DNA of 63,236 bases, the filler included, from Dimargaris cristalligena (taxonomy: Eukaryota): the NCBI GenBank assembly GCA_003614675.1. It is 14 parts of 14 records of this genome, joined end to end, with 100 filler letters (N's around TTAATTAATTAA, not from the genome) between each part and the next. Parts side by side here need not be neighbours in the genome. Positions count along the whole stretch, not along the records: positions 13,575 to 18,016 come from ML003777.1; 13 more parts are not named here. One strand, given 5' to 3'. The notes beneath the pieces were generated by a model. That model was not told the DNA's origin and did not search any database. It saw only the letters and a program-made list of their open reading frames with translations. The translations under genes were made by a program, and so were the position numbers. Every line of letters begins with the position of its first letter. Positions within the stretch are counted from its first letter, which is position 1. This document shows positions 4,471 through 60,029 of this stretch, in pieces.

Positions 4471-4570
4471 NNNNNNNNNNNNNNNNNNNNNNNNNNNNNN
4501 NNNNNNNNNNNNNNTTAATTAATTAANNNNNNNNNNNNNNNNNNNNNNNNNNNNNNNNNNNNNNNNNNNN
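4471..4570. other. Artificial contig-joining spacer (44 N + TTAATTAATTAA + 44 N), first of 13
   Basis: Identical 100-nt spacers at 4471, 8922, 13475, 18017, 22558, 27092, 31626, 36155, 40683, 45201, 49718, 54229 and 58736. The 12-mer has stops in all six frames. Confidence 0.99.
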
Positions 4571-8921: not shown

Positions 8922-9021
8922 NNNNNNNNNNNNNNNNNNNNNNNNNNNNNNNNNNNNNNNNNNNNTTAATTAATTAANNNNNNNNNNNNNNNNNNNNNNN
9001 NNNNNNNNNNNNNNNNNNNNN

Positions 9022-9402: not shown

Positions 9403-9985
9403 TGTCACCTGGGTTAACCACTCTTAGTCCATTAAGAGTCCTGAGGATAGGCTTCTAATAATAGGTAGGGCTTAGACTTGGCCAAGCAGGCTACTAGCAT
9501 TAGGTACAGGGCACAGTACTAACCAATAAAGGCTTAGGTAATCTGCTATATAAGGGATATACAGTGGGTATACTTACAGGTCAGTACAAGGGGGTGAGCA
9601 TATACAAAGTTTATTAAGGTAAACTAGGGGGTAAGAATAAGCTAAGGAATCTAACTGTTCCCAGTGGGGGCCAGTTATATATACACAGGGGATGACTCTA
9701 AAGGGAGGTCCCTGAAGGAAGATACTACTAAGACTACTGATAGGATAAATGGCTAACTGGATAGGTGTAAGGATGTGGAAGACTCTGCTGGGAACTGGAA
9801 GAGTCATTAAATCAGTCCAGGAGTGATTTATGGGAACCCCAGAGTCTGGAAAGGGAATGTTTATATTATATAGGATAATCCCATAGTACCAGGGGTGACT
9901 ATGGGAAGGTTAATATGGTGCTATAAGGCCTAATATGGTCAGTTGATCATTATATCTGGATTAAACCAGATAAGAAGGGCCAACA
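9403..9985 (-). mobile_element. Solo LTR, family 1
   Basis: TGT...ACA ends with near-TSD CACTC/CACCC. Reverse-complement similar to 50722-51292. Confidence 0.85.
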
Positions 9986-13400: not shown

Positions 13401-13575
13401 ATATGGCCTTTTTTCGGCTTGTTGTGCAATAGCAGGAGAATAGTGAAAAGGAAAGTTTAAACAGTAATAAACGTNNNNNNNNNNNNNNNNNNNNNNNNNN
13501 NNNNNNNNNNNNNNNNNNTTAATTAATTAANNNNNNNNNNNNNNNNNNNNNNNNNNNNNNNNNNNNNNNNNNNNT

Positions 13576-13827
13576 GACTGGATAGTAAATAACTTGCGCG
13601 AGGTGTATACTCCGGTAGTGTCTCATATCGAAATCCGGACGAATAACACTAACATCTCTCACGACGACATCGAACGCGCGCTTAATCTACTTACTAGCAA
13701 GGAAACGGGACCTTTTTGGATCAAGTTGGCACCTAATAACGTAGTTTACAAACCAGGACATTCTCTTTATTGCCTGCACGACAATTTATTAACTAATTTT
13801 CGATACATAATAGGAGGGGACCAGTAA
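13576..13827 (+). CDS. Orphan ORF, 5'-truncated
   Basis: Frame open from contig start (DWIVNNLREVY...IIGGDQ*), globular-looking composition. The stop lies within hairpin GACCAG-TAAA-CTGGTC. Confidence 0.55.
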   Translation, partial: DWIVNNLREVYTPVVSHIEIRTNNTNISHDDIERALNLLTSKETGPFWIKLAPNNVVYKPGHSLYCLHDNLLTNFRYIIGGDQ

Positions 13828-14064
13828 ACTGGTCGCAGGGATATGGATTAAAAGAGAAACAAAATAAAAAGGAAAAAAGAGAAAAGATAAGGGAAAGAGG
13901 GTGGTCTGCAAGGCCGACCGACCCTATATTGATCTATTGTCGTTGGTCAATAAAGGCGGAGTCCCCTCTAAAAGGGGACACCGACTCAATATCCAGAAAG
14001 CAAACCACTTACACTTGCCAATTGCATCCGGTCCGGATGAATAGAACTTATATGCTACACTGAA

Positions 14065-14304
14065 ATGCGGAGGCCGGAGTATGCATTGGGATATCAAACA
14101 CAGAAACACCAACACACAATCCGCTTATATTTCTACAATAAACAGACCATGGTTGAAGCTCTAAAGATGTTTAAGGGTGGCTACGGCATCGATTGGGACG
14201 ATATCAATTCTGAATCTCCGAAATGGAATTCTGTCCTTACTGCTCCGGTCTATCATGCAAGCCCGACGTCAGAATATGCCGAGTGCAGGATCGGTTTTCG
14301 GTAA
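14065..14304 (+). CDS. Orphan ORF (79 aa)
   Basis: ATG-started, protein-like composition, overlaps the next ORF. No recognisable family. Confidence 0.35.
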   Translation: MRRPEYALGYQTQKHQHTIRLYFYNKQTMVEALKMFKGGYGIDWDDINSESPKWNSVLTAPVYHASPTSEYAECRIGFR

Positions 14305-14513
14305 TCACCCAATCGGCCCTCGATGCGTTCCACAGTGCGGGAGCGGCATACAAAACCCTTAAGAAGATAGACCAGATCAGGTCAGAAAAGCTTGACGACA
14401 ACACACTATGTTCGTTATTACAGCTGTTTGTCCACAATCGGGTCAGTGTCAAGGTGGATTCCGACTGGATTCCTGTTCAACGTATTAACGAGTATTTGGT
14501 TTTAGAACATTGA
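14223..14513 (+). CDS. Orphan ORF with N-terminal CxxC-x4-C-x6-C cluster (96 aa)
   Basis: MEFCPYCSGLSCKPDVRIC...; AAATGG start context. Confidence 0.5.
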   Translation: MEFCPYCSGLSCKPDVRICRVQDRFSVITQSALDAFHSAGAAYKTLKKIDQIRSEKLDDNTLCSLLQLFVHNRVSVKVDSDWIPVQRINEYLVLEH

Positions 14514-14638
14514 TCAGGCATTCCCGCGAACAGGATCCAATTAGACGACGAGTCCACATCCGAATAAGAGTCTCTTGCAGAGTAATTTATTTTAAAAACG
14601 ACGACGGAGTCGTAAAACTCTCAAATACCAACTGGCAA

Positions 14639-15040
14639 ATGCCAAATTTACGATCGAGGGGGATTGTGGAGCGCATGGCGTCGGTAGGAGTCCAGCTGCG
14701 AGACTCGGCATATAAGAGGCAGTTGCAGGACATTCTGACCAGTCGGTCCAGTACCATCGAGCAAAAGGACGTGGCCATCAAACTTATTTACCAGTATTAT
14801 GAACGCTCCGACAAGGTGCAGAGTCTGATTGACTGATTACCGGAATCCATGCGCGAAGACTTTGCGACAGTTATTACAGAGAGATCGTTCCGAACAATGT
14901 TATGTCATAGTAGTCCAGATCTCTTGGAAGTATTCTATCCACGATGTTCTGCACTCACGCTACTGAAATTGCCATGCAAAGCCTATCCTATAACCGGGGG
15001 GTCGAATGTATCGTGTCCATACAGACCGGGAGAAAATTAA
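14639..15040 (+). pseudogene. Orphan ORF interrupted by one in-frame TGA
   Basis: ORFs 14510-14836 and 14849-15040 share a frame: MPNLRSRG...QSLID*LPESMREDF... with TGA at 14834-14836. Confidence 0.5.
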
Positions 15041-15179
15041 GCATCTTACAAACATGTACGAGTTAACGACGGCATTACTAGACACGACGATCCGAGATAT
15101 CGATGATGCACTCCTCCCTCCGTAGTCATCGTTTTTTAATTCTTAGAGAGGAGCGAAGCGACGAACGACTTGGTCGTTT

Positions 15180-15398
15180 TTAATCACCTCGAAGAGGTTC
15201 CTCATTTACGACCTGGAGTTCTTCTGTACACGCGCTACAGTACGCTTGGTTAGGGTCGTAGAGGTGTGTTACCGACACCGGAGAGTCGCAGGGCATCTTA
15301 CGATTGGCGCTACTGCGAGTTTTCCCGCACACCGGAGCCAGAAAATGGCCGCATTTATTCGCGTAGTAGTAATAATGACCGCAAGTCGAACAAGGCAT
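15180..15398 (-). CDS. Small Cys/His-rich putative Zn-binding protein (72 aa)
   Basis: MPCSTCGH...KCGH...VC...PC...YCSAC: 7 Cys, two CxxC and two CGH. Confidence 0.65.
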   Translation of the reverse strand: MPCSTCGHYYYYANKCGHFLAPVCGKTRSSANRKMPCDSPVSVTHLYDPNQAYCSACTEELQVVNEEPLRGD

Positions 15399-16411
15399 AT
15401 TGGAATGATTTTGATTAAAAGCTTTGATACTTCTTTGGAGTCGGTTTTAAAAAGCCTCAAGGGCTACTCCTTCGGAGTCGGGACCCCTGTGGGGGTGAAA
15501 ACCTCGAGAGCGGTATACCTAGGTAAGTATCCAATGGACCTCCCCTACCCGCCCCTTTGGGGTCATTCTTTCGAAATCCGAAGGATGAAAACGACTCCGG
15601 AGGAGTACGGTCGGTCGTCGCTCCCTCCCCACGGACACGTATACCCCTCCGGGGTCCCTCCCATTCCGACCTCCGGTCACGACACCCTACAACACACGTA
15701 ACCGTCAACAGGACGTCTAGTCCGCTCCGCTCTCACCCTCGAGGTTTTTCAAAATGACTCCATCGTAGACACCGGCCGCTGTCGGCACAACCCCATTAGA
15801 TTGATTGTTTACATTTTGGGCCAAACTGAAGGGAATAAAAGGGCCTCATCCGGAGAATTATTTGGGAGATCCATCCCATGTCGAACTAATTTCATTGGCA
15901 AAAAGGCTGGGCGTCAATCATCACCTTCCCCTCCCACTCACCTTCTTCCTCCACTCGACACACACGCTACTGCTGTATTTACCCCACTGGGACGCACACC
16001 ATCTAACCAACTTGTGGTTATCACATTGGGTTATGCCCTCCTCCATTGCCGTCGATTGCTACTTTTATCTGCCCCACCCACCCTCTCTCGCCACTGCGGG
16101 TTTCTACATGCCATTACCGCTCTGTACATTGCCTGGTTTATTACTGTTGATTAACCGCTTCCCCAACCCTATTACGTCGTTGACCCCTTTCTCACGTAGC
16201 TCAATAAGCGAGGGCCCGTGGATTTCTTCGCTCGATTCCCTTCTTGCCGTTCATAACCACCAATTGGCTTCAATCTCTTTCGGTCTAGACTTCCCCATTC
16301 AGCAGACTGGTAAGTGCCCTCCTGTTTCATAGAGAGGAATGGTCCGCCATCCCACTCACACAGCCTGCCCACATTCCTTGGTCGCAGTTGGCCAGGCGGA
16401 GTAGAGTCGAC

Positions 16412-16415
<4 letters not shown>

Positions 16416-16443
<28 letters not shown>
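16416..16443. repeat. (AG)n microsatellite
   Basis: Uninterrupted AG run of about 14 units. Confidence 0.95.
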
Positions 16444-16445
<2 letters not shown>

Positions 16446-17056
16446 TTTGGCTCTACTTGAGCTCTTTTCTCGTTGTTGTTACCCCCAAAGTCACGCGACA
16501 CCTTACCGCCTCTACACACCTACCCGCCTCTTCTCTTTACTCCAGTGGTGGTCTATAGAACTCCTTGACTTTGTTCATCCCTACTGTCCCTTTTTATCTT
16601 TCCTTTTCCTTTTTAGCTACCCTAAACAATAACCACCTTCTTACTCTTCTCCCCTCTCAAGACTCGTTGCTCCTCTATTTACCAAACCAAACCCAGCCCG
16701 CTCGTATAAGACTGGTCTACTTTTGGTTACTTGATCCCTTCACCTGCCCCAACATCCGTTCGCGTGATTCGGGGTTTGCTGTTTCCGAGTAATCACCTGT
16801 CCAATCGCGCTCTTAACTAATCCTTCTAGTTTTACTCCTCCGGAGTTCGGTTGGTCGCTTCGCTCCCGCCCTTTAGGTTTTTCAAAACGACGAAGGAGTC
16901 GGTTGGTCGGTCAATAACCTGGGAAGCATCCACGACCGAGAGTAGAGTCCCAGAGATCGTTTTCGATTAGTGGAAATCATCAACTGACGCGACCATCGGT
17001 AAAGATCTGGCGGATATAGAGCTATCGCGGCCTTAAACGACTCTCCGGATAGTACC

Positions 17057-17845
17057 ATGCATATCTTAGAGACATCCACTTGCAGCACTCACCACGTGAC
17101 TATTATCCGGAATGCCGATATCATATATAAAGTGTACCATCCACGACACACGGACTCGTTGGCACTACTGCGAAATACCATTTTTCCACCGCACCACGCC
17201 ATTATCGATTATACCGAATCAGGAAATCCTATAGTGGAATTCGATGGCCGGTATATAGATTATCCCACTATTCACCAGTATCCTAGTGCCGTGCAGTACA
17301 CCTGGGATGGATTAGGACCGCTTACGGCAATGACGGGGCACCCTCACGTACACTATAACGAGCTGTATGTAGTGAAGACCCCCCTAGTATCGTCTTTGAG
17401 TTATGCATTTCATACCGAATTACGCAACCATATTTATCTACCCCCACACAGACATATAGCCTCCTTTATAGGAGTGGTGGTTAATGGAGATGACGTCGAA
17501 GGAATTATATGCAAGCGGTATAACAGCGACGTGGGCCAGTTTACTATTGACGATTTATTCGGATTGTACAGTGCTATAAAGCATATTTCCCAAAATATCG
17601 GTTATCATGGAGATATCTGTCCGAACAATATTGTACGTGACCGGGAAAGTGGCGATATTAAAGTAATCGACATAGCACAGAACGGATATACCGAATCATG
17701 GGCTGCCCCCGAAGTTTTAGAAAGGCGTACACCGGACTTTATATCCGACTGTTACAGTTTAGGACGCGTGGCACGCAGTTTGGGAGAAATCGATACTCAG
17801 TTAGACGCGATAGATAGACGCCAAAGACGATTGCGTACTCCATAG
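17057..17845 (+). CDS. Atypical compact protein kinase (262 aa, intronless)
   Basis: YVVK (beta3 Lys), alphaC E (FHTEL), LPPHRHIASFIGVV, YHGDICPNNIV (catalytic loop), KVIDIA, WAAPE, SDCYSLG. Confidence 0.9.
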   Translation: MHILETSTCSTHHVTIIRNADIIYKVYHPRHTDSLALLRNTIFPPHHAIIDYTESGNPIVEFDGRYIDYPTIHQYPSAVQYTWDGLGPLTAMTGHPHVHYNELYVVKTPLVSSLSYAFHTELRNHIYLPPHRHIASFIGVVVNGDDVEGIICKRYNSDVGQFTIDDLFGLYSAIKHISQNIGYHGDICPNNIVRDRESGDIKVIDIAQNGYTESWAAPEVLERRTPDFISDCYSLGRVARSLGEIDTQLDAIDRRQRRLRTP

Positions 17846-18118
17846 ATGTGTAGCGTCACGGCCCGGGGATCTGGGAGGGTTCGGCGTGGCCCGCCGGGTT
17901 GAGGGACACCAGACCGTGGCGAGGAGGACGGCTGTAACAACCGTTCGAGAGGTGAGCGAGGGCGAGACGGGGGTGGAGAAGGCGACTCTTCCGAGTTCCC
18001 GATGAAAGGACGTTTCNNNNNNNNNNNNNNNNNNNNNNNNNNNNNNNNNNNNNNNNNNNNTTAATTAATTAANNNNNNNNNNNNNNNNNNNNNNNNNNNN
18101 NNNNNNNNNNNNNNNNCC

Positions 18119-19801
18119 GAGGCGTTCCACGAGTCCCTGCGGACATACATCGATTCCAACACCGCTGGATTGATCTCCGGTAAACACGGTAGCAACCGCC
18201 GCGGTCCCCTGGGTGCCATGACCCATAGCGAGTGCAACAAGCGCACTTTCCAGGCCCTGATGCAGCTTCAGTACCTCCACAGCCTGGTCGCTCCCGGTGA
18301 AGCCGTCGGTCTGTTGGCCGCCCAGGGTGTAGGTGAACCGTCGACCCAGATGACGTTGAACACTTTCCACTTTGCCGGGTTTGGTGCCAAGAACGTAACC
18401 CTGGGTATCCCCCGTCTGCGTGAAATTGTCATGACCGCCAGTACCAAACCCCTCACGCCTTCCATGACCCTTCCCCTGCTATCACACGTCACCGAGAAGG
18501 TGGCCACCGACTTTTGCAAGCGCATGACCCGTCTGCGGTTGGCCGAGGTGGTTGACCATGTTCAGGTCACCGAGAGTCTGACCCGGGCGCACCGCAACCG
18601 TGCCCAGCGCCACAAGCGTTACGTGATCCGCATTGACTTCTACAACAAGGAAGCCTGTGCCGAGGAGTATCTGATTACACCCGAAGATATCGAGAATACC
18701 CTGGAAATGCAGTTGATTCCTACTCTGGGCTATATTATTGGCCAGATTCTGAAGAACAAGGCCATTAGTTCCGTGATCAAACGCATCGATCGTACCTCGA
18801 CTAATGCCCAAGCGGCCGACGATGCGAATGTGCCCGTGGATCTCGTCGAAGATGATGACGATAACCGGGTTCTTTCGCGCCCTAGACGGCCCGAGGGCAC
18901 TACTATGCCTCAGGACGATGACGATTCCTCCGACGAAGATTCCGATAATGAACGGGAAGGGGGTAAGCAGGAGATGCGTCGCCAACAGCGCCAGAAGGAT
19001 TTCAGCTCCTCCGCCACTGAACAGCCCGACGCTGATGCGGCCGGGAAGGACGAGTTTAGCGCTGAGCTGGATGCCCTGGACGCTTCGCTCGCCGAGTCGA
19101 CGCGGGACGATGAATTCCGTAATACGATTGACCAAGCCGCCCGGATCCGCCGGATCATCCAGGATAACGAATTCTTGGAAAACTATAAGTTTGAGAGCGA
19201 AAAGGGTTGTTGGTGCGAACTGACCCTGGAGTTCCCGGCCGAAACCAAGAAATTGCTCATGGTCTCGCTGGTGGAAAAGGCCGCCGACCGCGCCTTGGTG
19301 CAGGAGCAGGCCCACATTAAGCGGGTGTTCCCCTTGGCCAAGGAGAATGAACACGATACGCGCGATCAGTTGGCCACCGACGGGGTTAATTTCGCCGCCT
19401 TTTGGCCCCACGGGGACATTCTCGATATCAACAACATGACCACTAACGATATTCACGCCACCCTCCAAACCTACGGCGTGGAAGCGGCCCGTTCCGCCAT
19501 CATTAACGAAGTGTCAGGGGTGTTTGCCGCCTATTCCATTGGTGTCGACCCCCGCCATATTTCCCTCATCGCTGACTACATGACGTTTGAAGGTGGCTAT
19601 AAAGCCTTCAACCGGAAATGTATTGCTACTAACGCTTCGCCGCTCGCCAAAATGAGTTTCGAATCGACCTGCAAGTTCTTAACTGATGCGACCATCTACG
19701 GTGACTACGATGTTCTGAACAACCCTTCGGCCCGTTTGGTCGTGGGGGCACCCATTCTCGCCGGTACCGGTATCTGCGATGTTCTTCAGGAAGCGGCTTA
19801 A
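18119..19801 (+). CDS. RPA190: RNA polymerase I largest subunit, C-terminal part (5'-truncated)
   Basis: PGEAVGLLAAQGVGEPSTQMTLNTFHFAG...NVTLGIPRLREIVMTAS, acidic Pol I expander region, TYGVEAAR, RHISLIADYMT, KMSFE, PSARLVVG...GTG. Confidence 0.97.
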   Translation, partial: EAFHESLRTYIDSNTAGLISGKHGSNRRGPLGAMTHSECNKRTFQALMQLQYLHSLVAPGEAVGLLAAQGVGEPSTQMTLNTFHFAGFGAKNVTLGIPRLREIVMTASTKPLTPSMTLPLLSHVTEKVATDFCKRMTRLRLAEVVDHVQVTESLTRAHRNRAQRHKRYVIRIDFYNKEACAEEYLITPEDIENTLEMQLIPTLGYIIGQILKNKAISSVIKRIDRTSTNAQAADDANVPVDLVEDDDDNRVLSRPRRPEGTTMPQDDDDSSDEDSDNEREGGKQEMRRQQRQKDFSSSATEQPDADAAGKDEFSAELDALDASLAESTRDDEFRNTIDQAARIRRIIQDNEFLENYKFESEKGCWCELTLEFPAETKKLLMVSLVEKAADRALVQEQAHIKRVFPLAKENEHDTRDQLATDGVNFAAFWPHGDILDINNMTTNDIHATLQTYGVEAARSAIINEVSGVFAAYSIGVDPRHISLIADYMTFEGGYKAFNRKCIATNASPLAKMSFESTCKFLTDATIYGDYDVLNNPSARLVVGAPILAGTGICDVLQEAA

Positions 19802-22557: not shown

Positions 22558-23162
22558 NNNNNNNNNNNNNNNNNNNNNNNNNNNNNNNNNNNNNNNNNNN
22601 NTTAATTAATTAANNNNNNNNNNNNNNNNNNNNNNNNNNNNNNNNNNNNNNNNNNNNGGCCGGATGATTATGGTGATGGGGGGGGACGCTGTGGACGGCG
22701 AAGAGGTTGGGTCGGACATGGAACTGATGCAGACAGGAGGGTAAAGGCAGGAGAAGGGAAGTGGCAAGCGGTCTAATTATTAGGGTCACTGGAAAGAAGC
22801 GGGACGGAAATAGCGGGGATGGGCGGACAAACACAGAAGCTCATTCGCATTAGAGGGTAGTTAGTACACTCTTAAACAGAAGAAAAAGTAGGAGAGTAAG
22901 AGAGGGGGAGACGCCGTGGGTTCTAGTCAAATAACCACCAGCCCTTCCCTCCCTTGCCTTCATTTCGGTCTCCCCGCCTCACGCCCGCCCCAGTGGCTCG
23001 ATAAAGATAGACTGACTCGGCGCCCGTCCACGGCAGCGCCCTGGTGCCTCCAAGCCCTTCCCTTTTATATCTATTTATATATATATATTATTTTACCCCA
23101 ATTCCCTCCCCCCGCCAGTTCGACTTTCCCGTTCCCCATTGCCAACCGATTCCCATTCACCC

Positions 23163-25793: not shown

Positions 25794-27363
25794 GATGTAC
25801 ATTGTGCTCCTTGGCTATCCATCGATTGTGTATGATTGGTGACTGGTCTCGTTGACCTGATAGAGCAAAAGGGCCATATGCCGACATTTTTTACTCTATT
25901 TAGAAGCGGGATTTTACTATATTTTATCCGTTTCTTGTATTATCCATTCCCCGATTAGGTGAAGTTCCAGCTTAATTCGCGGATGTCGACCGCAGCCCCC
26001 TTTGGCTCTTTATGATTTCATTTCATCGCATGTTGTCCCATTCCAGTCAGTTTCCCAAGCAAAAACTACTCCTGGCAGGGTGTACTAGCCAGAGGCGCAG
26101 ACATAGAATTTCCGAGACCCAATTAAGAGTGCCGTATTGCTCTAAGAAAATTAAAGTAAAGTAAGATACAGTTGGGCCGGCGGTATAGCCCCGTTGGGGG
26201 AGAACGCTGGATAGAAGACATACTTACAGTTTGGTTGAAATCCGGGAGGCTAATTAATGGAGGGGCTGGTGAAGTTTTGGTCGCGGGCATTAAATTCGCT
26301 GCAGTAATATCATCAAGTAAATCGGGGAAGTGACATCTACTACCATTTCCGAATAGGCCAGAGTAGTCGGATAGATGATAGCTTAACCTAAAGCCGTTTC
26401 TACTCGAGGAAATATTTTCACTCATTGCCTTGGATGGTGTTTGCTGGCGTTCTTTGGCCAGTACTTATATTCACGCTTCCATAGCTACTCATCAAGGACT
26501 CCACAACTGCTATGCCTCACTAAGACAGTAGGACCTGGTCCCAATTGCATTCTAAGCACCTTTCCCACTACACACTGACTATGGATACCGATCAAAGCCT
26601 GCAAGCCGCCACACTCCCCCACAGCCCGTTCCCGGCCCCTAACATTAGGGAATTCCCCCGGGTCAACCATATATCCGAATTTGGCTGAAGTGTAGGCAAG
26701 GAAATAGAAAACCGGACCTTTATTTTTTACCTGTAAGAAATACCCGCCCCAGCCAACGGGGTTTTCATTATGTGGCCAGGGTGAACACCATCTGCCGTAA
26801 TATAAATGCATCTATAGTCCCACACAGACTAACAATCAATACCCGAAATATCTAACTGGCTGACCCATGTTATACCCCCCCCCTGGCCGATACTCTAGTT
26901 TGCTCTCATGAGGAGGAGTTAGGGGTAGACGAGCTGGCCATGTGGTGATCAACCCGGGTCATTTTTCATACACAAGGGATGAGGGGAGGGGGCATTTGGG
27001 GGTCATGCATGGCACAAAGTATTTAAGCCAGGATATTATAAATAGGGTTTCTCTGCCCACCTGGCCGCTCGACTTTCACCACTGGTGACCTNNNNNNNNN
27101 NNNNNNNNNNNNNNNNNNNNNNNNNNNNNNNNNNNTTAATTAATTAANNNNNNNNNNNNNNNNNNNNNNNNNNNNNNNNNNNNNNNNNNNNGGGCCTAGG
27201 AATAGGTGCCGCCGAAGTTTGTGGTTCTTGGGGAGGCGGCACAACAGGCTTTTATAAGAGACCCTTTGTTATACCCCACCTCCCAGCCCGTCCGCAACCT
27301 CAATGGCCCCATCCATCCATCCAAAACCCCAAATACCTACCCATCTCTACCCCCGGTACACCG

Positions 27364-31599: not shown

Positions 31600-32647
31600 C
31601 CTGAGCTATAGCTCTGCCTCCCCCTNNNNNNNNNNNNNNNNNNNNNNNNNNNNNNNNNNNNNNNNNNNNTTAATTAATTAANNNNNNNNNNNNNNNNNNN
31701 NNNNNNNNNNNNNNNNNNNNNNNNNGTCAAGTTTACCACTGCCCTAATTTGAGTGCAAATATGACTCCCTTTAATGCTTTGATATAAAGCAGATATTATC
31801 AAAAAAAGAAATAAATTCCAATATAATTTCGTTTGTTGCACACTGGCTCTTAGGACCATTAGCTCTTTATGTATATCTTTAATACTTCTATTTAGTCAGG
31901 GCGCGCATGACCGTAGTCATTACCGCCATTATTATATGAAAGCATAGTGTATGGAAGAACCACAATATCGAAACCATATTAAGTGGTTGAAACAAGATTA
32001 CAGTCGACTATACGGAGCCGAGAATTGCAGAAACACTAGTTGATAGTTGGGAAGGAGTCGAATAACTGAGATGGCCAGAAATATGGGGTGTATGGAAAGG
32101 GCGCCTGGACCTTAAGGACGCAGCAGTGGTTAACTTGGGTACCGTGGCTTAGACTGTCTATCCGCTTCCGACATCTCTGGCACTTCTCACCATTAATAAA
32201 CACTGACCATTCCTTAATTTCACTTTTTCACTTTTATCAGCCAATCTAGCCAGTAGTAGTAATTGCTCCCAAAACGTATTTTGATTACACAGAAGACTAT
32301 GCCTAGCGGGGATGATAGTTGAATACAGGGGGTATAGTAGTGATACATCTCCTCTTTTAGTTTGGTTATGATCCAGTGCTGCTGTATTAGAGAGGTATAT
32401 AGAATTTTAAATGGTATCTAGATAACACTACCTATTTTAGTATTATCATTCAAGATGAGTTGGCCACAGGGCTCATACAACTATTGTAATATTTGTGGTT
32501 TTGACCATTTTAATATCTATAAACTCAAGCTCTGCTGTTCTTATTTTTTTCTAGCCCCCTTTGACCCTTCCAGGATAAATATAAAAGGGTTGGAAAGGGT
32601 GGTATTTACAAGAATGAATTTATATATAAGTATTTACAATTGGTTAC

Positions 32648-35803: not shown

Positions 35804-36254
35804 GAAAAAGCAAATCTCAAAATGGCTCTCTCATTTAGTGGGCATTTATGCTAGTAGGTGTTTGAGCAATATAATTAATTAATAAGTAACCATGGTTGAT
35901 AAAAAATTCAACCCACTTAGCCTTTATTTTTATTATTTCCAATTACTTTTCAATTGACTACACCATATCACTAATGTGTTGAATAAATATTTTTATATGT
36001 AATAGTTTTTCTAACCCTCATGAATTGCGCTTCCATTTTAAATGTCACAACTGTAATGACACTTGAATGCAGAAAGCTATTAATATATTATTTGAATATA
36101 TAGTCGAACTCAGCGCAAACTCCCTCTCTTTAGGGCGCTTCACCTGGCTAAAATNNNNNNNNNNNNNNNNNNNNNNNNNNNNNNNNNNNNNNNNNNNNTT
36201 AATTAATTAANNNNNNNNNNNNNNNNNNNNNNNNNNNNNNNNNNNNNNNNNNNN

Positions 36255-40353: not shown

Positions 40354-40782
40354 GCACCCAGTTGTATCCAAGTTAAACATGACCATCTTCCCTTCAGGTC
40401 CAGGCTGCTTCCAATTCTGAACCATCGTTTTAAGTTTACCAGCATGGACAATCGTTCTAATTGGACCACTCTCTCCAAAAAAAAAATTGTTTCCGCTTTC
40501 GGCGAATCCGTTCCCCCTCTGGCACCCTCCAAATTTTTTGGTGCTAATCACTGGCGAAGCCCGCCGTGATATTCGAAGTTTTTATTAGTTTTACCCCATA
40601 GTTGAATCATTTCCTCCGCTAATTTTCCGAGCCAGGTAGGCTCATCCAAATGGCCCCATCTAATCCAACCAGCTTGTGCGATNNNNNNNNNNNNNNNNNN
40701 NNNNNNNNNNNNNNNNNNNNNNNNNNTTAATTAATTAANNNNNNNNNNNNNNNNNNNNNNNNNNNNNNNNNNNNNNNNNNNN

Positions 40783-43817: not shown

Positions 43818-45358
43818 AAAGGGGGGAGAGGCCATGTTGTACTTGGATACTAGTAGACCGGGCATTCTATAATAACAGTCCCTTTAGTCGGTCCTCCATG
43901 ACCAATTTCAGGGGATTAGACTGCTTTTGAATACTTATTTCTAGATGGGACACATTCGTTAAGTGAACTAGCGATTGTATGTAACATGGCATGAAATAAT
44001 CATGGAGCGATTAGACCGAAGCTCAATTGGGACTATTCAGCTTTGATTAATGCCCCAACCAGAAAATACGGAATATTTTAACCGGTGTTAGTCGTAAAAT
44101 CGTCAGTGAACATTCCTGCCTATGTGGAATATCTAATAGTGGAGGCGGAATATATAATGGTCACTCAACTTCCGCCCAACAGACTTCACTGACCCATTCC
44201 TGACATTACTATCCATGAATAGTGGTAGTCCTGGTGAGTTAAGGGTAAGAGTCAGATTTGGTGGGGTGGGCAGGAGGATGGGGCAGGTTTGGCTCATCCA
44301 AGTGGAATAGTAGATCCTAGCTGTTTGCTGAGGAGTGATGTATTTTATCTACCCCAGGTGGTGAGGCTAATACTATTGATGAGTAACTAATTTTTTTGCC
44401 TGGGACCTTCCCCAACAAGCCCAGGATGCCTTACCTATTGTGACCACTCCTGGAGGGTTTAATTGTGGATTCAACTACAGATTATCAACTCTTCTCACAT
44501 ACTTTAATAAGATAGTCCCTGATCCCTCAAAATCCATAATGGCTGGAACTGCTGACCTTAAGTTAACGTTTTTGTTGTGAATATGGGATGGATAGCCTCA
44601 GTGTACAGTATTGCCGTTCTAGTAGTCTATGTTTAAAAACACCATTTCCAATGTACTATCATACCAAAATGACCTACGACTCATCCCACTTACTGTGGCG
44701 CTCCATAAGCCATCTATGATATTCAGTTCACTTTAACTAGAGGACTGATGTCTACCTGTGCTTTGGTTTGGAATTGCATAGCCATACTGTGGGTTGTTAC
44801 AGCCACCATTGGCACTGGTGTCACAGTGTGGTGGTGTCAGGCCACTAAAATGAACAACAAAAATACTATCAAAAGGGCAGGGTGGCTTCTCCAGGCGAAC
44901 TGGTTTGTCACTCAAATGAAAAATAATAAAACCAACTGTATAAAGTTTTAAACCAAAGTAATCCAATATGAAAAATACCAGTTTGCAAGCTCAAAAGGAC
45001 CATTTCCTTGGCAACCACAACTTTCAAAGGTATATAAATCCAAGTAATCCAAAGTAATAGTAAATGTAGTTTTATTGTAAAGAAAAAAAGTAGAAGAAAA
45101 TTAACCCTAAACAAATTGATACACAGAAAAAAAGAGGGGAAAAAATTTCCTATATATGCAAAAATATGCACACTAATGCATTACCGATTGCTTGCATTCA
45201 NNNNNNNNNNNNNNNNNNNNNNNNNNNNNNNNNNNNNNNNNNNNTTAATTAATTAANNNNNNNNNNNNNNNNNNNNNNNNNNNNNNNNNNNNNNNNNNNN
45301 ATAGATCGAACAGCTCCTTTGAACAGCCGCAATGCGCTAACTGAATGGTTTCAGGCCA

Positions 45359-49430: not shown

Positions 49431-50022
49431 CGTCTTTAAAATAACCTTAGATAGCAGTGGGCCTATGGTTTCAGGTGATAATAACTTTGAGCAATTTTAA
49501 TGTTATCGTGGGGGTCTGGATATGAAATCAGATAATCTAGTTTGGTGTAGATAATCAAGGCCATCGCCAGAAGCCCCCCCCCCCTTTTAATGGTGGGTCT
49601 GGGGCAGTCTAACGTACACATTCCGAGACCTTGAATGCCCTCTATCTACTCTGGGGCAAGAGTGTTAGAGGACTAACCAATAGTAAACCCGATATGGGAC
49701 ATATATAGTGAATCAAANNNNNNNNNNNNNNNNNNNNNNNNNNNNNNNNNNNNNNNNNNNNTTAATTAATTAANNNNNNNNNNNNNNNNNNNNNNNNNNN
49801 NNNNNNNNNNNNNNNNNTACTCCCCCTTACTGCCACCTCTTGGAACAGCAAGTCTATCATCACCTTTCCCTTTTATCATCTATTCTTTCAAATAAAGTTC
49901 AGTTTTCAAGGATTTGATTTCAGTTCTTTACAACTGGTACTCATGGTAGACATTAAGTATAAATATTAGAAATAGGAAATATATCTACTAAAGTGTTTGA
50001 AATAATAATAATGAATATAATA

Positions 50023-50560
50023 TGTCACCCCTCCTAATCTAACCTAATCTGGCCTCATTGATCACCGTCTTAGCAGGCCTTATAGCACCATATATCATAT
50101 ATCACCTAACCAGTTGGATCCTTCAGAGTTCACACTACTCACTCCCCCACTGATCCGAGTATCTTCTGGTTCCCATGGAAGACTCCTCTCTGTGACGAAG
50201 ACCACCTAACTCTTACTATTGATACCTTAGTCATGTAGTTTCCCCTTGGGACCTCCCTTTGGAGTAGTCCCCTGCATATATATAACCGGGCCCTACTGGG
50301 ACCAGTTAGATCCTTAGCTTATTCTTACCCCTGTAGTTTACCCAATAAACTCTATATATGCTCACCCCTCCTTGTACTGACCAGTAAGTATACCCACTGC
50401 ACATCCCTTGCATCCCTCTAATTGACTAAGCCTTTATTGGTTAGTACTGTGCCCTGTACCTAATGCTAGTAGCCCGCTTGGCCGAGTCTAAGCCCCACCT
50501 ACTGTTAGAAGCCTATCCCTGAGACTCTTGATGGACTAAGAGTGGTTAACTCAGGTGACA
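50023..50560 (+). mobile_element. LTR family 1 copy (no TSD)
   Basis: TGTCACC...GGTGACA termini, internal TATATAA then AATAAA. Confidence 0.9.
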
Positions 50561-52728: not shown

Positions 52729-54329
52729 CAGAGAATATGCAGATGTGGCAGCCCATCCATTTACATCATATGGGGTAAATATATTATCTATGAACTATAT
52801 GAACTATGTGACTATCACAGTTGAATTTTACCTGACTGTTCATTAATTTAACTGGTAAATCTGTGTAGCAACATTATCCTAAGACTTAGGGTATATAATG
52901 TGTACATATATCTGTGACTATTAGGTTGTTTGGGTATAACTATGGCGAATATTGTGGCTAGTAATGTAAGCAAGAGCCTGTGTAGTGAAATTACTTGCTA
53001 GCTTTTTTTTTCACCTGGTGTTATCTGGTATTTCCATGGCCTATTTTGAATCATATATCATTGGGTGGAATTTAATGACCTGCTCTCTCAAAAGAATACA
53101 TTTTATATTATACTACCAGGGAAATAGGCATTTGTCCTACATTAGATATTTCCTAACTGGCTACTGATATCATACAGGGATGAAGACCACCCCCTCCCTC
53201 CTATTTGAAAAATGGGAGGCATACCTGAGAAAAAATAAGAATAAGAAGGGGTGGGTTGATGTGGCTAAAGTAGTAGGGTTTGGTAGCAAATGAGGGCTGA
53301 TGAAGAGTCCATGTTTCACTTGAATCGACCTACCAGATACCCTGTCTAAAATCACTTTTAAGGGATTTTTACCTCCCAAAGGGCACTTACGGGCTCCCAG
53401 GCTTGGTATAAGAGGTATAATGATTAATTTTATCTTCACTCCAGTTATCTGCCTCTCCCCCTAAAGACCACATCCACCACCTCCTCCTCTATAAGTGGTT
53501 AGAATAGTCCGAAAAATAATATATTTTATACTTGGGCATATAATGGGACTTCTCCCCTCTTCTGAACAACCAGAGAGAGAGGGAGAAATACCCTCTCCTC
53601 AAATGGCCGGAGAGGCCAATAGGAGGGGGAGGGGGATCCTAACCAGGCCACAATCCCTTGCGGTATTTATCATACTCGCTAGCCTCTCTGGGAAGTTTGG
53701 GAGTACTCTTCTATGGGTGGGTGGGGAGGGTATTTCACCCAGTCTAACGGGTCCAAGTCCACCAGATATAATTGGCCGAAGGGTGCCTAAATTAAGACGA
53801 TTGAACAATTGGTGTATGCCACACTCAAAAAGAGAGAGCGAGAGCGAGAGAGAAAATGGGGAAAGCGAAAAAGAGTTGTACAGTGATTTGGGCTAGGCTT
53901 CTTTGCTTCCTTCGTCCCCTTCTTTTGGGTATAGGTAGTACGAGGAAATTGGGGAAACGGGTTTAGCTTCTTTTGAGCACAGCCAATAATCTGGCACCAT
54001 TATTACACACACTCACGGCTCCTCCTGCCACTCAGCTTCAAGTGGCTAATATAGACCGTTAAATATGGGCAGGGCGTGTGGTATGGTTGGGGAGGGGGAA
54101 CATATGGGCTGATCTGGCCATAGCCCATAGCCCTCCGAAAGGCCGGAATAGACTGCCGCTGGCTAACATTGATTGGTAGAAGGGCCTTACAAAAACTAAT
54201 GCTGGATTTGAAGGAACCACCCGAAATTNNNNNNNNNNNNNNNNNNNNNNNNNNNNNNNNNNNNNNNNNNNNTTAATTAATTAANNNNNNNNNNNNNNNN
54301 NNNNNNNNNNNNNNNNNNNNNNNNNNNNG

Positions 54330-57126: not shown

Positions 57127-60029
57127 GCGATCCCCCCGACTGCCCGGCCCTTCATTAGGTGAATAGATGGATGCGAGTTTCAATACCTCCCCGTACTTCC
57201 TTGACCACCTTATGTATCAGCCAAGCCCGATTTTCTTCTTCAGTTCGACTTTTTCCCCCTTGTTGCCGGTCCATTTCCCAATTGTCATACTTATTATCAA
57301 CCCCCCTTGGTATTTTTATCCCTTTCAAAGAATGCCGTTCGCACTTGTCCGTCCTTTCGCTCCACAAAAGGTTTGGTCGACGAGTAAAGCTGTTTGTGAA
57401 CCTACTACTATCCCCAATGGTACTCTTTGTATCTGGCCTGTGTGTGCGCATGTTCGTGATCTCCTCGTTTTGCTATTGACATGGTCTCGCCCATTCGTTC
57501 AGCTACCCGTGTTTCTTTCCTACTTATTGTCCCTGCCTATCCGTCGCTTTTTGCTTATTTAGCCTTCAGTTGCAGCATGTCGATATACTATCATGCTGCT
57601 TGCCTATTTGGGGTTTAATAATAAAATCGTCGTTTAATCAGATCGCAATATTCTCTCTAGCTTGAAACGGTGAACCATGCCGAGCCCTGTATTACCTATA
57701 TGTCCTGGCCTATGATATCTACTTTTTAACCCATGTATAATAGGACCATCGTTCGTCTAGACGGGTTAGACCCGATCTATTCATCACTTCCAGGACTGTA
57801 GACCCAGCTATAGACTGGTATGCCAAGGACAGGGTTATGGTTGGAAATACTTGCCGTTTTTGACTGGATGTCTTTATAACTACAGCTCACATTTCATCGT
57901 GAAAACTAAAGGGAAGCCCACCTGTAGCACCCTTGAATACTAGTAATCGTCACAGTTGGGCAGTGGTTGGTTTTTTGATTCATTTAAAAAGTGATTCCTT
58001 ATCATTTTGGATATCGCCCGTCTGCAACCTCCAAATCCGAACTTTAATATTTGCCTACTCTAAATACTCTACTTATTAAAAGCTAGTCACGACTTCGGCC
58101 CATCACTTCCGTTTCGTCAGTTGGTTCTTCAACAGTCCAAAATGGAACATCTATTTCCGGAAAACCCGAATAAGTTGAAGAATATTTGGAAAACGAAGGT
58201 GTCCCTATTCCGTAATTTATCAAGGCATGGCCGTAGATTGTTCCTATTCAAACTCGCAGCTTCGGCAACCTATGGTCAGTAGTAATGTTTACATATCAAA
58301 TTATCCAATATGGCTCAATTCGGGCACTGATCTTCGCTGTCTTCATTTTGTATCCCCAGGTAACCCTATTGCTATTCTCTGCGGCCAGGAACAGGTGACA
58401 TGTGCGTCGGGAATGGTGCTTTCCTTAAAATATAGTTAAGCAAGAGTTGATTAAATTATCTAAAACAGCACGGCTGTCGAAATATCCACACTAGTTAAAC
58501 TTACAAAGTAAGGAGAGCCAGGCCACAATATCAATAGTAGGATGTGTTAAACAAAAAGAATAATCAAAGTAAGCAATTTATTAAGCTGGTATATTTATAA
58601 AATAAGGGGAATAACATGTTCCTCAGAGCTTTATTAGAAAGCTGTTTATAGACGTAGGAGTGTAGTAGTAATATGAGGGAGGATTGTCAAAAAAGAATGG
58701 CCGGTGGTGTGCGTTATGCCAATCGGGAAATATACNNNNNNNNNNNNNNNNNNNNNNNNNNNNNNNNNNNNNNNNNNNNTTAATTAATTAANNNNNNNNN
58801 NNNNNNNNNNNNNNNNNNNNNNNNNNNNNNNNNNNAATTTTTCGCTTATTCCTCAGATATTACCGTGAACTCTTATTGATTTACTATTAACGGACACCAC
58901 CGTTTTTTATATCCCAATAAACCTTATACCTCGTTTATATCCCCCGTTCTCCGTTTTGTTCCATTGATTACCCATCCCTCCGTTATCCCGCCATGACGAC
59001 GCCCAACTCCGCCCCTGTCTCCTCCAACTCCGCGAACCTCCCGTCTTCTACCACCAGGGAGCTGGCCGCTGCGACTTCTGGCCAGGTTGATAAAGAGGCC
59101 GTTGCCTCTACGCGAATTCCGAAGGCCGCTGGCAATAGGCCGGACGCCCCGGGTAGTACAAATGTTATGTCCCATTATGCAGCATCATTGGAAGCAATCG
59201 CATTGTTTAATAAAGGAGGGGGAAGGAGTGTGCACGTCTTTTTGTATGCTACAAGGCTCTCTTTCAAACGTGCCTTAAGGAATGCAGTCCACTGACCTGA
59301 GATTTTCAACAGCCCTAGGGGATATAATCCACGGGCCCAGCTCCGTGACTATGATACTGGACTTTCACGGCGGTAAGGGGGTTGGGGATCTAACAAACAT
59401 CTTTAAAGATCCTAATTGTGCTATCCCATACTGAGGCGCCTTGCGCTTTTTATATTATTATTATTTGAGGACAATCCTTCTCTTTAACATGTCTTCAGAC
59501 AACCAGGCATCTGCCTTAATAAAGGCCGGGGTCAGTATTTGTTATATTAGGGCCTGTAACAATCTATCCAAACCAGCCTTTTGGATTGTTGGATAAAATA
59601 ACCATACCTCTTATTCTCACCCTTATATAAATATGCCATGTCCATATCTACCTACCAAACCTCATCACTACATATCACTTGAAATTATCGCATTTATACA
59701 GCCGGTTTAATAATTATTTATACTTAGTATTCTCATTGTATTCGCGTTGCATATGTATACCTCACTATCTTAGCCCCTTAATGTTCTATCAACAGCCGAA
59801 CTTGACCTACGGGTATAACCGGTTCGGCTCACCCAGCACTGCATCTATTTCAGTTTCTGTATTGATTCCTTCCAGTTCCCCTTTATTGTAGCCCATAGGT
59901 TCTTTAATACGCTTGGGACGCCATTCCATAGACCTCTAGATCCATTACCCTTAATACCGCGCGATTTCGCAATATTTTGAAGCGGCAATTACACCTACAA
60001 CCACCCAGTACCTCCGCCCCACTACTACA

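Follow-up and report, generated by a model that had tools for sequence, protein, structure and literature searches.

Degenerate copies of a short non-coding unit cluster in both orientations within one contig of Dimargaris cristalligena

Six degenerate copies of one short non-coding unit cluster in a single contig of Dimargaris cristalligena nuclear DNA, in both orientations. The unit is 55-70 nt long, and its copies span 2.35 kb (14571-16901) in spacers. The window, that is, the whole stretch of DNA analyzed (63,236 nucleotides), is made of 14 contigs of about 4.4 kb each joined by N/TTAATTAATTAA linkers, and all the copies are found in the contig at 13575-18016. We tentatively read them as decaying copies of a short repeat, either MITE/foldback-like or locally inverted-duplicated, an interpretation that we would place a little short of an even chance.

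The order of modules is identical in all the longer copies, and it is cyclic: TTTTTYAAAAYGAC, N3, GGAGT, CGGTYGGTCG, CTTCGCTCC, CCCTnnAGG, and then TTTTT... again. The modules are pieces of one 55-70-nt unit with fixed order rather than independent elements. The copies are about 73-91% identical to one another, with indels, and their divergence leaves no sharply conserved core. The unit is CpG-rich, and CpG/TpG alternatives are found among the copies (AAAACGAC/AAAATGAC, CTCGAGG/CTTGAGG and CGACGAC/CGATGAC).

Recurrence of the modules in both orientations had been proposed in the initial annotation, and the six copies, distributed over the plus and minus strands, bear it out. The two alignments given there also hold after correction by one nucleotide: 15723-15758 matches 16856-16891 (formerly 16855-16890) at 30 of 36 positions, and 15150-15166 is the reverse complement of 16850-16866 (formerly 16849-16865) at 16 of 17. 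In addition, 14590-14612 matches 16879-16901 at 21 of 23 positions, and 15594-15607 and 16833-16846 are reverse complements without a mismatch. The best matches (36 nt at 83% and 23 nt at 91%) far exceed the length of a transcription-factor site. The pattern CCCTnnAGGTTTTTYAAAAYGAC does recur, with two exact matches against 0 expected, and so does ACTCC-N3-GGAGT, found three times (15466, 15594 and 16834) against 0.08 expected. Other details had been overstated. The ungapped full module GGAGT(N)CGGTYGGTCGCTTCGCTCC occurs only once, even if three mismatches are allowed, and its other occurrences are partial or bear indels. The TTTT..AAAAYGAC module, said to be present in both orientations, is exact on the plus strand only, while its minus-strand copies are degenerate.

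Could such similarities be chance resemblance among compositionally biased spacers? Several weaker inverted matches (scores of 13-15) do not surpass the best diagonals of shuffled sequence, and the hairpin total discussed below is not significant. However, 150 dinucleotide shuffles yield no direct match scoring above 18, whereas the contig has two, with scores of 24 and 19; diagonals scoring at least 14 number 15, compared with 4.2 ± 2.0 in shuffles; and the 23-nt pattern and the constant module order point in the same direction. Shuffle and pattern counts refute the chance explanation for practical purposes, and we find it hardly conceivable. Short words are also enriched in the contig: GAGTC/GACTC is present 20 times (9.8 ± 2.9 in shuffles) and AAACGAC five times (0.7 in shuffles), and 0 of 300 shuffles reach either count.

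Copy 1 (14571-14612, plus strand) has its core at 14590-14612, TTTTAAAAACGAC-GAC-GGAGTCG. Copy 2 (15118-15198, minus strand) contains the full unit with flanks, aligned over 44 nt at 73% with a gap, and overlaps the stop codon of a minus-strand ORF (15180-15398). Copy 3 (15430-15496, minus strand) and copy 5 (15702-15771, plus strand; CGCTCCGCTCTC-ACCCTCGAGG-TTTTTCAAAATGAC-TCC) form the left and right arms of an inverted arrangement of 327 bp. Copy 4 (15567-15629, plus strand; 38 nt at 79%) reads AAAACGAC, ACTCC-GGA-GGAGT, ACGGTCGGTCG-TCGCTCC, and its GC box lacks 2 nt. Copy 6 (16826-16915, plus strand), the most complete, comprises about 1.3 units: ACTCC-TCC-GGAGT, TCGGTTGGTCG, CTTCGCTCC, CGCCCTTTAGG, TTTTTCAAAACGAC, GAA, GGAGT, CGGTTGGTCGG. 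The nhmmer E-values of copies 1 to 6 (1.4e-4, 1.5e-9, 2.2e-12, 0.0088, 1.5e-13 and 2.7e-15, respectively) reflect matches by construction, as the copies are the training sequences.

The repeat had also been described as palindromic. Short palindromes and hairpin motifs do exist in it, but for all six copies the fold is no more stable than that of shuffled sequence: energies remain at shuffle level (z from -0.84 to +1.21), and the same values apply when stable hairpins at gene 3' ends are sought among the six copies. A hairpin-based role as terminator or origin thus gets no support from folding energies. An Rfam scan detected no RNA family (only SNORD65, with an E-value of 0.97), and a tRNA scan found none. 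Mini-hairpins of the 5+3+5 type are not significantly enriched in the contig (8 vs 4.6 ± 2.1; 41 of 500 shuffles reach 8). Seven of the eight perfect ones have a common frame, AC..C-N3-G..GT, around two inner pairs that are variable on either side. Because these hairpins were pre-selected as perfect, pairing and covariation exist by construction, and only the common frame is informative. Three ACTCC and two ACGAC hairpins are, moreover, homologous copies and not independent events.

The common frame is one argument for an explanation based on a DNA structure recognized by a protein. The repeats would then be origin-like iterons, or the ends or subterminal sites of a rolling-circle, HUH or recombinase element, with the AC..C-N3-G..GT mini-hairpins and GCT(T/C)CGCTC boxes acting as putative binding sites. 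GCTC-like boxes do recur beside the hairpins, and repeated boxes and short A/T palindromes are present. The adjacent minus-strand ORF at 15180-15398, which is Cys-rich and 72 aa long, matches the zinc-binding domain of the IS91 transposase, but the match is sub-threshold (E 0.0036; 17.7 bits vs a cut-off of 26.3) and the ORF has no homologue. Stems of 5 bp that fold at shuffle level and are in part homologous argue further against this possibility. A Pfam search of the 49 stop-to-stop ORFs of the contig yielded nothing above threshold: no transposase relic, Rep, initiator-like ORF or viral hallmark was detected. The GC-skew profile is uninformative, as the contigs are concatenated. We regard a protein-recognized structure as extremely unlikely.

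The 327-bp block (15436-15762) has imperfect inverted arms at 15436-15463 and 15735-15762, an inner inverted pair at 15465-15481 and 15592-15608, and many AC..C-N3-G..GT mini-hairpins. Its fold gives a z of -1.95, with four of 100 shuffles equally good. Both arms are made up of copies of the unit, which could be paired equally well in other ways. Inspection of the flanks of 15436-15762 revealed no target-site duplication: the junctions carry no direct repeat of 2-10 nt, even when a shift of 1-2 nt is allowed. The sole strong hairpin among those tested is an imperfect palindrome at 13954-13986 (GGAGTCCCCT-CTAAA-AGGGGACaCC; score 19; z of -5.21, 0 of 200 shuffles). It carries the GGAGTC word too, and adjoins a stretch that is multi-copy in sequencing runs.

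The "island" of genes to which the repeat had been assigned is no more than one assembly contig. Its left border is an artificial linker, N44-TTAATTAATTAA-N44 (13475-13574), and its right border is another (18017-18116). Because unrelated small contigs were joined to make the window, it offers no safe ground for arguments about an island. The 13 remaining contigs, which contribute 58.8 kb from the same assembly, yielded no copy of the repeat in motif and profile searches. These contigs do share different repeat families among themselves. No added depth was seen over the copies in four sequencing runs at a likeness of at least 90%, and the bins at 14469-14617 and 15065-15809 were at flank level, so the runs give no sign of a dispersed high-copy family. 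Tandem Repeats Finder detected no period of about 55. Paralogous pieces in the runs align to 13767-13970, 13895-13976 and 14638-14768, while 17857-17892 is flanked by loose ends. Given that parts of the contig are multi-copy in the runs, the neighbourhood is repeat-prone. Kinship of the copies with the high-copy repeat at the contig end (17846-18016) was discarded, as local alignment scores (14 or less) were at chance level. The CpG observed/expected ratio of the contig, 1.07, is the highest of the 14 (others, 0.09-0.89), and this is its sole organelle-like trait. A mitochondrial palindromic repeat of the GC-cluster or double-hairpin kind was rejected: the kinase described below uses the standard code and its Coemansia relatives are of nuclear type, the tRNA scan was negative, and depth over the contig in one run (X5) equals that of paralogous contigs.

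The only verified gene near the repeat is a protein kinase gene (17057-17845, plus strand), and every copy lies outside it. The gene is intact and intronless, and encodes an atypical kinase of 262 aa with HGD..PNN, DIA and APE motifs. The Pfam Pkinase match (E 3.2e-5) is below the curated cut-off. A homologue search gave 10 matches, the best with 45% identity across the full length. The named relatives come from Coemansia, a genus of the same subphylum, where they are hypothetical proteins encoded on contigs 1.4-48 kb long; the closest relative, P0001, sits on a contig of 4347 bp. GC3 of the kinase is 0.44, compared with 0.62-0.74 in four housekeeping ORFs, and a 1-kb tract that is C/T-rich on the kinase coding strand lies ahead of the gene. 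A search for a kinase pseudogene elsewhere in the contig, by tBLASTn with four kinases, gave a best E-value of 0.43.

The remaining claimed genes fared differently. One of the three corresponds to the second exon of a public gene model, P0017 (14223-14836, plus strand), an ab initio-type prediction for a D. cristalligena hypothetical protein of 111 aa; in the other assembly of this fungus, the P0017 gene sits on a contig of 71.8 kb. The model consists of an exon at 14223-14382, a predicted intron at 14383-14658 (GTCAGA...GAG) and an exon at 14659-14836, and the motif is located in the predicted intron. An introner reading was dropped, as it rests on this one ab initio intron only. The 72-aa ORF is unsupported as a gene: besides having no homologue, it shows low protein-likeness (recognition 1960, best score 0.80), and its only domain matches, to zinc ribbons, are sub-threshold. 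A codon-score test of small ORFs favours any open frame, and its result was therefore discarded.

These neighbours bear on the claim that the repeat sits sense-upstream of genes. Three of the six copies are indeed located sense-upstream of an ATG-ORF, within 180 nt, but the other three are not. The distances to ATGs 14639, 15398 and 17057 are 37, 42 and 166 nt, in agreement with the earlier estimates of about 40, 40 and 170. Counted in sense, copy 1 stops 37 nt short of ATG 14639 (plus strand), the TTTTTAAAACCGAC box of copy 3 stops 42 nt short of ATG 15398 (minus strand), and 166 nt separate the A/T box of copy 6 from the kinase ATG. The probability of finding at least three of six copies within 180 nt sense-upstream is 0.076 (about 0.08-0.1), calculated post hoc; that of finding at least two of six within 60 nt is about 0.05, by hand calculation from a fraction of 0.061. 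A promoter role thus has a borderline, post-hoc positional hint in its favour.

The hypothesis behind this hint is that the unit may be an orientation-dependent cis-regulatory module, in which the TTTTNAAAAYGAC box, a TATA-like A/T palindrome, is combined with CGAC/GGAGTC words. It would act in the promoters of a small group of lineage-specific genes, perhaps after exaptation from a repeat. We consider this rather unlikely, and keep it in play because two copies lie 37 and 42 nt before ATGs; these distances and the similar start contexts fit a promoter element better than debris. Orientation also agrees: between the ORF at 15180-15398 (minus strand) and the kinase gene (plus strand), the copy on the minus strand points towards the minus-strand ORF and those on the plus strand point towards the kinase. 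The enriched GAGTC/GACTC and AAACGAC words and the C/T-rich tract ahead of the kinase are in line with it as well. However, the statistics are post hoc and involve six copies, and the kinase alone is a verified gene. Copy 1 is intronic in the public model, copy 2 falls at an ORF's 3' end, and the nearest ATG-ORF is 438 nt away from copy 4 and 275 nt away from copy 5. Similarity over 36-70 nt in fixed order indicates descent and not convergent sites, and ordinary genes on the other 13 contigs do not have the motif nearby.

A bolder version, which we hold to be quite unlikely, is that TTTTNAAAAYGAC-N3-GGAGTCG might be the private promoter of a compact lineage-specific cassette of intronless small genes, possibly virus- or transposon-derived. 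The box would lie about 40 nt ahead of start codons and would have spread as the entire 55-70-nt unit was duplicated; it would give the cassette a transcriptional programme of its own in the mycoparasite Dimargaris.

Giant viruses offer a partial parallel. Mimivirus has promoter boxes, and the 3' ends of its transcripts obey a "hairpin rule". The Dimargaris contig resembles Mimivirus in that an A/T-rich box precedes start codons by about 40 nt and short spacers contain small palindromes. It differs in that no viral genes were found on the contig, the hairpins are unstable and the named relatives of the kinase are fungal. Under a viral hypothesis, the copies would be the promoters and terminators of a compact foreign element, such as an endogenous virus-like one, in which small intronless ORFs and a kinase gene would be accompanied by a dedicated upstream motif and by 3'-end hairpins. 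In a published survey, D. cristalligena has one giant-virus capsid homologue and is the sole non-zoosporic fungus with one (PMC13533422). Within the window, the contig is also atypical in its CpG ratio and kinase GC3, and its short ORFs lack homologues. On the other side, its 4.4 kb harbor no viral hallmark gene among 49 ORFs, a PHROGs search with seven ORFs gave only a weak kinase match, and IMG/VR contains no relative of the kinase family, of an 83-aa ORF or of P0017; the borders of the "island" are, besides, linkers. The pattern TTTTYAAAAYGAC-N3-GGAGTCG had 0 matches in IMG/VR. GGTYGGTCGCTTCGCTCC had 18 single matches there, in phage-like contigs, judged to be chance because none has the A/T module and similarity is limited to 36 nt or less. 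A metagenome motif scan (one run) gave five single matches without extended similarity. Altogether, a viral or otherwise foreign origin seems to us very unlikely.

We therefore return to the reading of the copies as a decaying short repeat. Similarity over 36-70 nt in a fixed order argues that they are related by descent. Their origin would most likely be a short non-autonomous foldback/MITE-like repeat, or the inverted local duplication of a short tandem array. The unit may have been copied into nearby non-coding DNA, and may now be drifting, partly by CpG-to-TpG changes; self-propagation, as proposed before, is compatible with the presence of copies in both orientations. The ACTCC-N3-GGAGT "hairpin" would arise at the junction of one unit with the next and is too short for a stable structure, and the A/T palindrome may by accident provide adjacent reading frames with TATA-like boxes. 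Counting against this reading, no target-site duplication was found at the junctions of the inverted block, no copies elsewhere in 58.8 kb and no transposase relic in the contig; the CpG-rich unit and the highest CpG ratio among the contigs also weigh against it.

Known elements offer partial parallels. Degenerate MITEs reportedly exist in Epichloe. In hAT/Ac and CACTA/En-Spm elements, arrays of subterminal transposase-binding motifs occur in direct and inverted orientation. Foldback and class II subterminal arrays resemble the Dimargaris repeat in that short motifs run both ways over a few hundred bases, with arms made of sub-repeats; unlike them, the Dimargaris contig showed no element ends, transposase or target-site duplication. 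Elements of the mimp (miniature impala) kind are found in promoters of Fusarium oxysporum effector genes (PMC3599309). Like mimp and the Epichloe MITEs, the Dimargaris repeat is short and non-coding, with putative inverted ends and degenerate copies in both orientations, and some of its copies are found in spacers just upstream of putative small lineage-specific genes. Unlike MITEs, it showed no target-site duplication, parent transposon or dispersed copies in the window and in the ORFs of the 4.4-kb contig. Its unit is, in addition, cyclic and tandem-like, with all copies within 2.35 kb, while a MITE is a single TIR-bounded body. Growth of inverted repeats by template switching, reported in yeast promoters (PMC13100816), is a non-mobile route to short promoter palindromes; template switching alone leaves six copies of a 55-70-nt unit unexplained.

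If the copies are repeat debris, they are ordinary genome texture, and the main value of this analysis is the correction of the "island". If they are instead a positioned promoter element, it would be among the first cis-elements described in Zoopagomycota. Such an element would provide a handle on co-regulated, fast-evolving small genes in a mycoparasite, as proximity to mimp does in Fusarium.

The window is not a single locus: it strings together 14 contigs, each ~4.4 kb long and unrelated to the others. Thirteen 100-nt linkers, identical in sequence (N runs flanking TTAATTAATTAA), divide it into 14 pieces of 4,351-4,470 bases. These linkers, located at 4471-4570, 8922-9021, 13475-13574, 18017-18116, 22558-22657, 27092-27191, 31626-31725, 36155-36254, 40683-40782, 45201-45300, 49718-49817, 54229-54328 and 58736-58835, also surface as 'repeats' D1 and I1-I3 in a repeat search of the window. 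Long-range patterns that span them, such as skew or 'islands', are artificial. Because the repeat under study lies wholly within piece 4 (13575-18016), between linkers, the 'island' to which the initial annotation assigned it, sharp borders included, is an artefact of concatenating small contigs. In the other pieces, the genes are ordinary nuclear ones (alanyl-tRNA synthetase, RNA polymerase Rpb1 domain 5, a CCT chaperonin, IPP transferase, a LINE-type endonuclease and an integrase zinc domain). Neither BLASTN nor TBLASTX matched piece 4 to any of these 13. Common repeat families of 280-590 nt, with 74-92% identity, are present in pieces 1, 3, 5, 8, 9 and 12 (for example, 9403-9736 and 50228-50560), and piece 12 harbors multiple copies, both direct and inverted.

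The repeat itself is real. The repeat search recovered the direct match of 30/36 (15723-15758 with 16856-16891) and the inverted pair of 16/17 (15150-15166 with 16850-16866) that had been described, although the second coordinates of both had been one base off. It also detected a direct match of 21/23 (14590-14612 with 16879-16901) and an inverted pair that is perfect over 14 nt (15594-15607 with 16833-16846). When piece 4 was compared with itself by an ungapped diagonal scan, the best two direct matches scored 24 and 19, while the maximum in 150 dinucleotide shuffles was 18; the idea that the resemblance arose by chance is thus left with a negligible probability. Diagonals scoring at least 14 numbered 15, compared with 4.2 ± 2.0 in shuffles. 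Inverted matches scoring 13-15 are at chance level when taken singly; they count only because they fall on the same modules. Three short modules have three matches each in the window (0.37, 0.23 and 0.08 expected), eight of the nine within piece 4; the remaining one, in piece 5 (19078-19091), resembles the GC box with two mismatches. The proposed recurrence of full modules holds for the 23-nt A/T module, with two exact matches where none was expected, but a single ungapped occurrence is all that was found of the full 25-nt GC module. What was originally observed is real, though of narrower scope than first stated.

Six degenerate copies were found by BLAST of the fullest one (16826-16915) against the window and by a profile built from the six segments, whose E-values for these copies hold by construction as they are its training sequences. 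Copies 1 (14571-14612), 4 (15567-15629), 5 (15702-15771) and 6 (16835-16901) lie on the plus strand, and copies 2 (15118-15198) and 3 (15430-15496) on the minus strand. The profile detected no further copy at E<1 elsewhere in the window. Module order is constant: the A/T palindrome TTTTTYAAAAYGAC, three bases, GGAGT, CGGTYGGTCG, CTTCGCTCC, CCCTnnAGG and the A/T palindrome again. A single order indicates that the modules are parts of one cyclic unit of ~55-70 nt and not shuffled elements; where one unit meets the next, their junction forms the ACTCC-N3-GGAGT 'hairpin'. TRF detected no period of ~55. A 327-bp block (15436-15762) has copies 3 and 5 as imperfect inverted arms and an inner inverted pair inside; no flanking duplication was seen when its flanks were read by eye. 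The length of the similarity and its fixed order argue that the copies are related by descent.

The palindromic character attributed to the repeat did not translate into folding. As single-stranded DNA, none of the six copies folded better than its own shuffles (z from -0.84 to +1.21), and this argues against a hairpin or iteron site recognised by a protein. For the 351-nt block, z was only -1.95, and 4/100 shuffles were equally good. Perfect 5+3+5 mini-hairpins were eight, compared with 4.6 ± 2.1 in shuffles (41/500 reached eight). Seven of them share the frame AC..C-N3-G..GT, with two inner pairs that vary on both sides, as such a site might have; however, they were preselected as hairpins and several are homologous, so that the frame offers a lead without proving that structure is under selection. 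We consider a recognition site of this kind very improbable. The sole strong hairpin of piece 4 (13954-13986; z -5.21, 0/200 shuffles) opens with the same GGAGTC word as the repeat. It is an imperfect palindrome with a 7-bp GC-rich stem and outer pairs, located ~130 nt past the stop of a 5'-truncated 83-aa ORF (13576-13827), and adjoins a stretch that is multi-copy in sequencing runs. Rfam and tRNA scans were negative.

The repeat had been reported to tend to lie sense-upstream of genes. Measured from the end of the A/T box to the next same-strand ATG-ORF of at least 60 aa, copies 1, 3 and 6 are indeed 37, 42 and 166 nt away, but copies 2, 4 and 5 are at 351, 438 and 275 nt. Post hoc, three of six copies within 180 nt gives P=0.076 (background, 18% of position and strand pairs), and two of six within 60 nt gives P ~0.05 (calculated from a fraction of 0.061). 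As these P values are post hoc and copy 2 overlaps the stop of a minus-strand ORF, the tendency is a hint and not a result. A positioned promoter module, to which copies 1 and 3 lend that same post hoc hint, ranks second among the readings but is unlikely. Just one of the three downstream 'genes' could be verified.

That one, a 262-aa kinase ORF (17057-17845), is a real gene to judge from protein comparisons. An exhaustive phmmer search gave 10 relatives, among them one full-length protein at 45% identity and hypothetical proteins from several species of Coemansia, a fungal genus in the same subphylum. The ORF also shows a weak match to Pkinase and a likeness to small fungal kinase clusters of the ESM Atlas. 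The ORF is intact, yet no self-match was found in the protein collections searched, and it appears to lack annotation in public gene sets. A 32-nt direct match (14870-14901 with 17601-17632, the latter encoding the catalytic loop) has 78% identity and a score of 18, equal to the best shuffle; tBLASTn found no kinase pseudogene supporting it. ORF 14639-14836 is 100% identical to exon 2 of an NCBI D. cristalligena gene model (111 aa), which is located on a contig of 71,852 bp. Mapped onto the window, the model has an intron at 14383-14658 that contains copy 1 and whose splice sites (GTCAGA...GAG) look unconvincing to us. The model may derive from a project on low-coverage Kickxellomycotina genomes whose annotation pipeline builds ab initio consensus gene models (PMC9866270). 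The Cys-rich minus-strand ORF 15180-15398 has no homologue and a low protein-likeness score, and none of the 49 stop-to-stop ORFs of piece 4 matched a Pfam family above threshold.

Composition sets piece 4 apart. Its CpG o/e is 1.07, the highest of the 14 pieces (0.09-0.89 in the others), with a low GpC o/e (0.75). Pieces 7, 8 and 12 are nearly CpG-free (0.09, 0.17 and 0.23), and piece 7 has the LINE-type endonuclease ORF. GC3 is 0.44 in the kinase and 0.62-0.74 in four housekeeping ORFs. GAGTC/GACTC occurs 20 times (9.8 ± 2.9 in shuffles) and AAACGAC five times (0.7), counts reached by 0/300 shuffles in either case. Because of this composition, and because PMC13533422 reports that D. cristalligena has one homologue of a giant-virus capsid, a foreign or viral origin was tested. 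However, no viral gene was found on piece 4, nor any IMG/VR relative of three of its proteins, nor motif relatives in IMG/VR or JGI metagenomes, and viral-type signals are accordingly very improbable.

Five DNA runs from two studies, all carrying the label organism A, cover piece 4 almost completely, and contigs of four of them (including X5, from the second study) match it with few differences. Bins with repeat copies have depth at flank level; near-identical copies elsewhere are not evident by this method, which is blind to diverged ones. Run pieces from elsewhere in the DNA of the organism match 13767-13970 (15-16 differences) and 13895-13976. In 4/4 runs compared, a paralogous contig aligns over 14638-14768, where ORF 14639 starts. 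It has 11 differences there, of which the eight given with a position are transitions throughout, and it becomes dissimilar right upstream of 14638, just before the ATG. In 4/4 runs, too, many different flanks join at 17857 and 17892. The segment from there toward 18016, GC-rich and right after the kinase stop, reaches a depth of up to ~56x flank in run X1; it is a high-copy repeat and probably ended the contig. Run contigs also break at an (AG)14 microsatellite (16416-16443), which falls within an ORF-poor tract of 1 kb (15800-16830) that is C/T-rich on the coding strand of the kinase. The paralogous pieces and the many joining flanks indicate a neighbourhood rich in repeats and paralogues.

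The likeliest reading, which we hold tentatively from sequence, is that the copies may be a decaying short repeat, either MITE/foldback-like or locally inverted-duplicated. Its closest described parallel is the mimp (PMC3599309), a MITE whose deletion from promoters showed no direct role in expression there, and which is sited in effector-gene promoters of Fusarium oxysporum.
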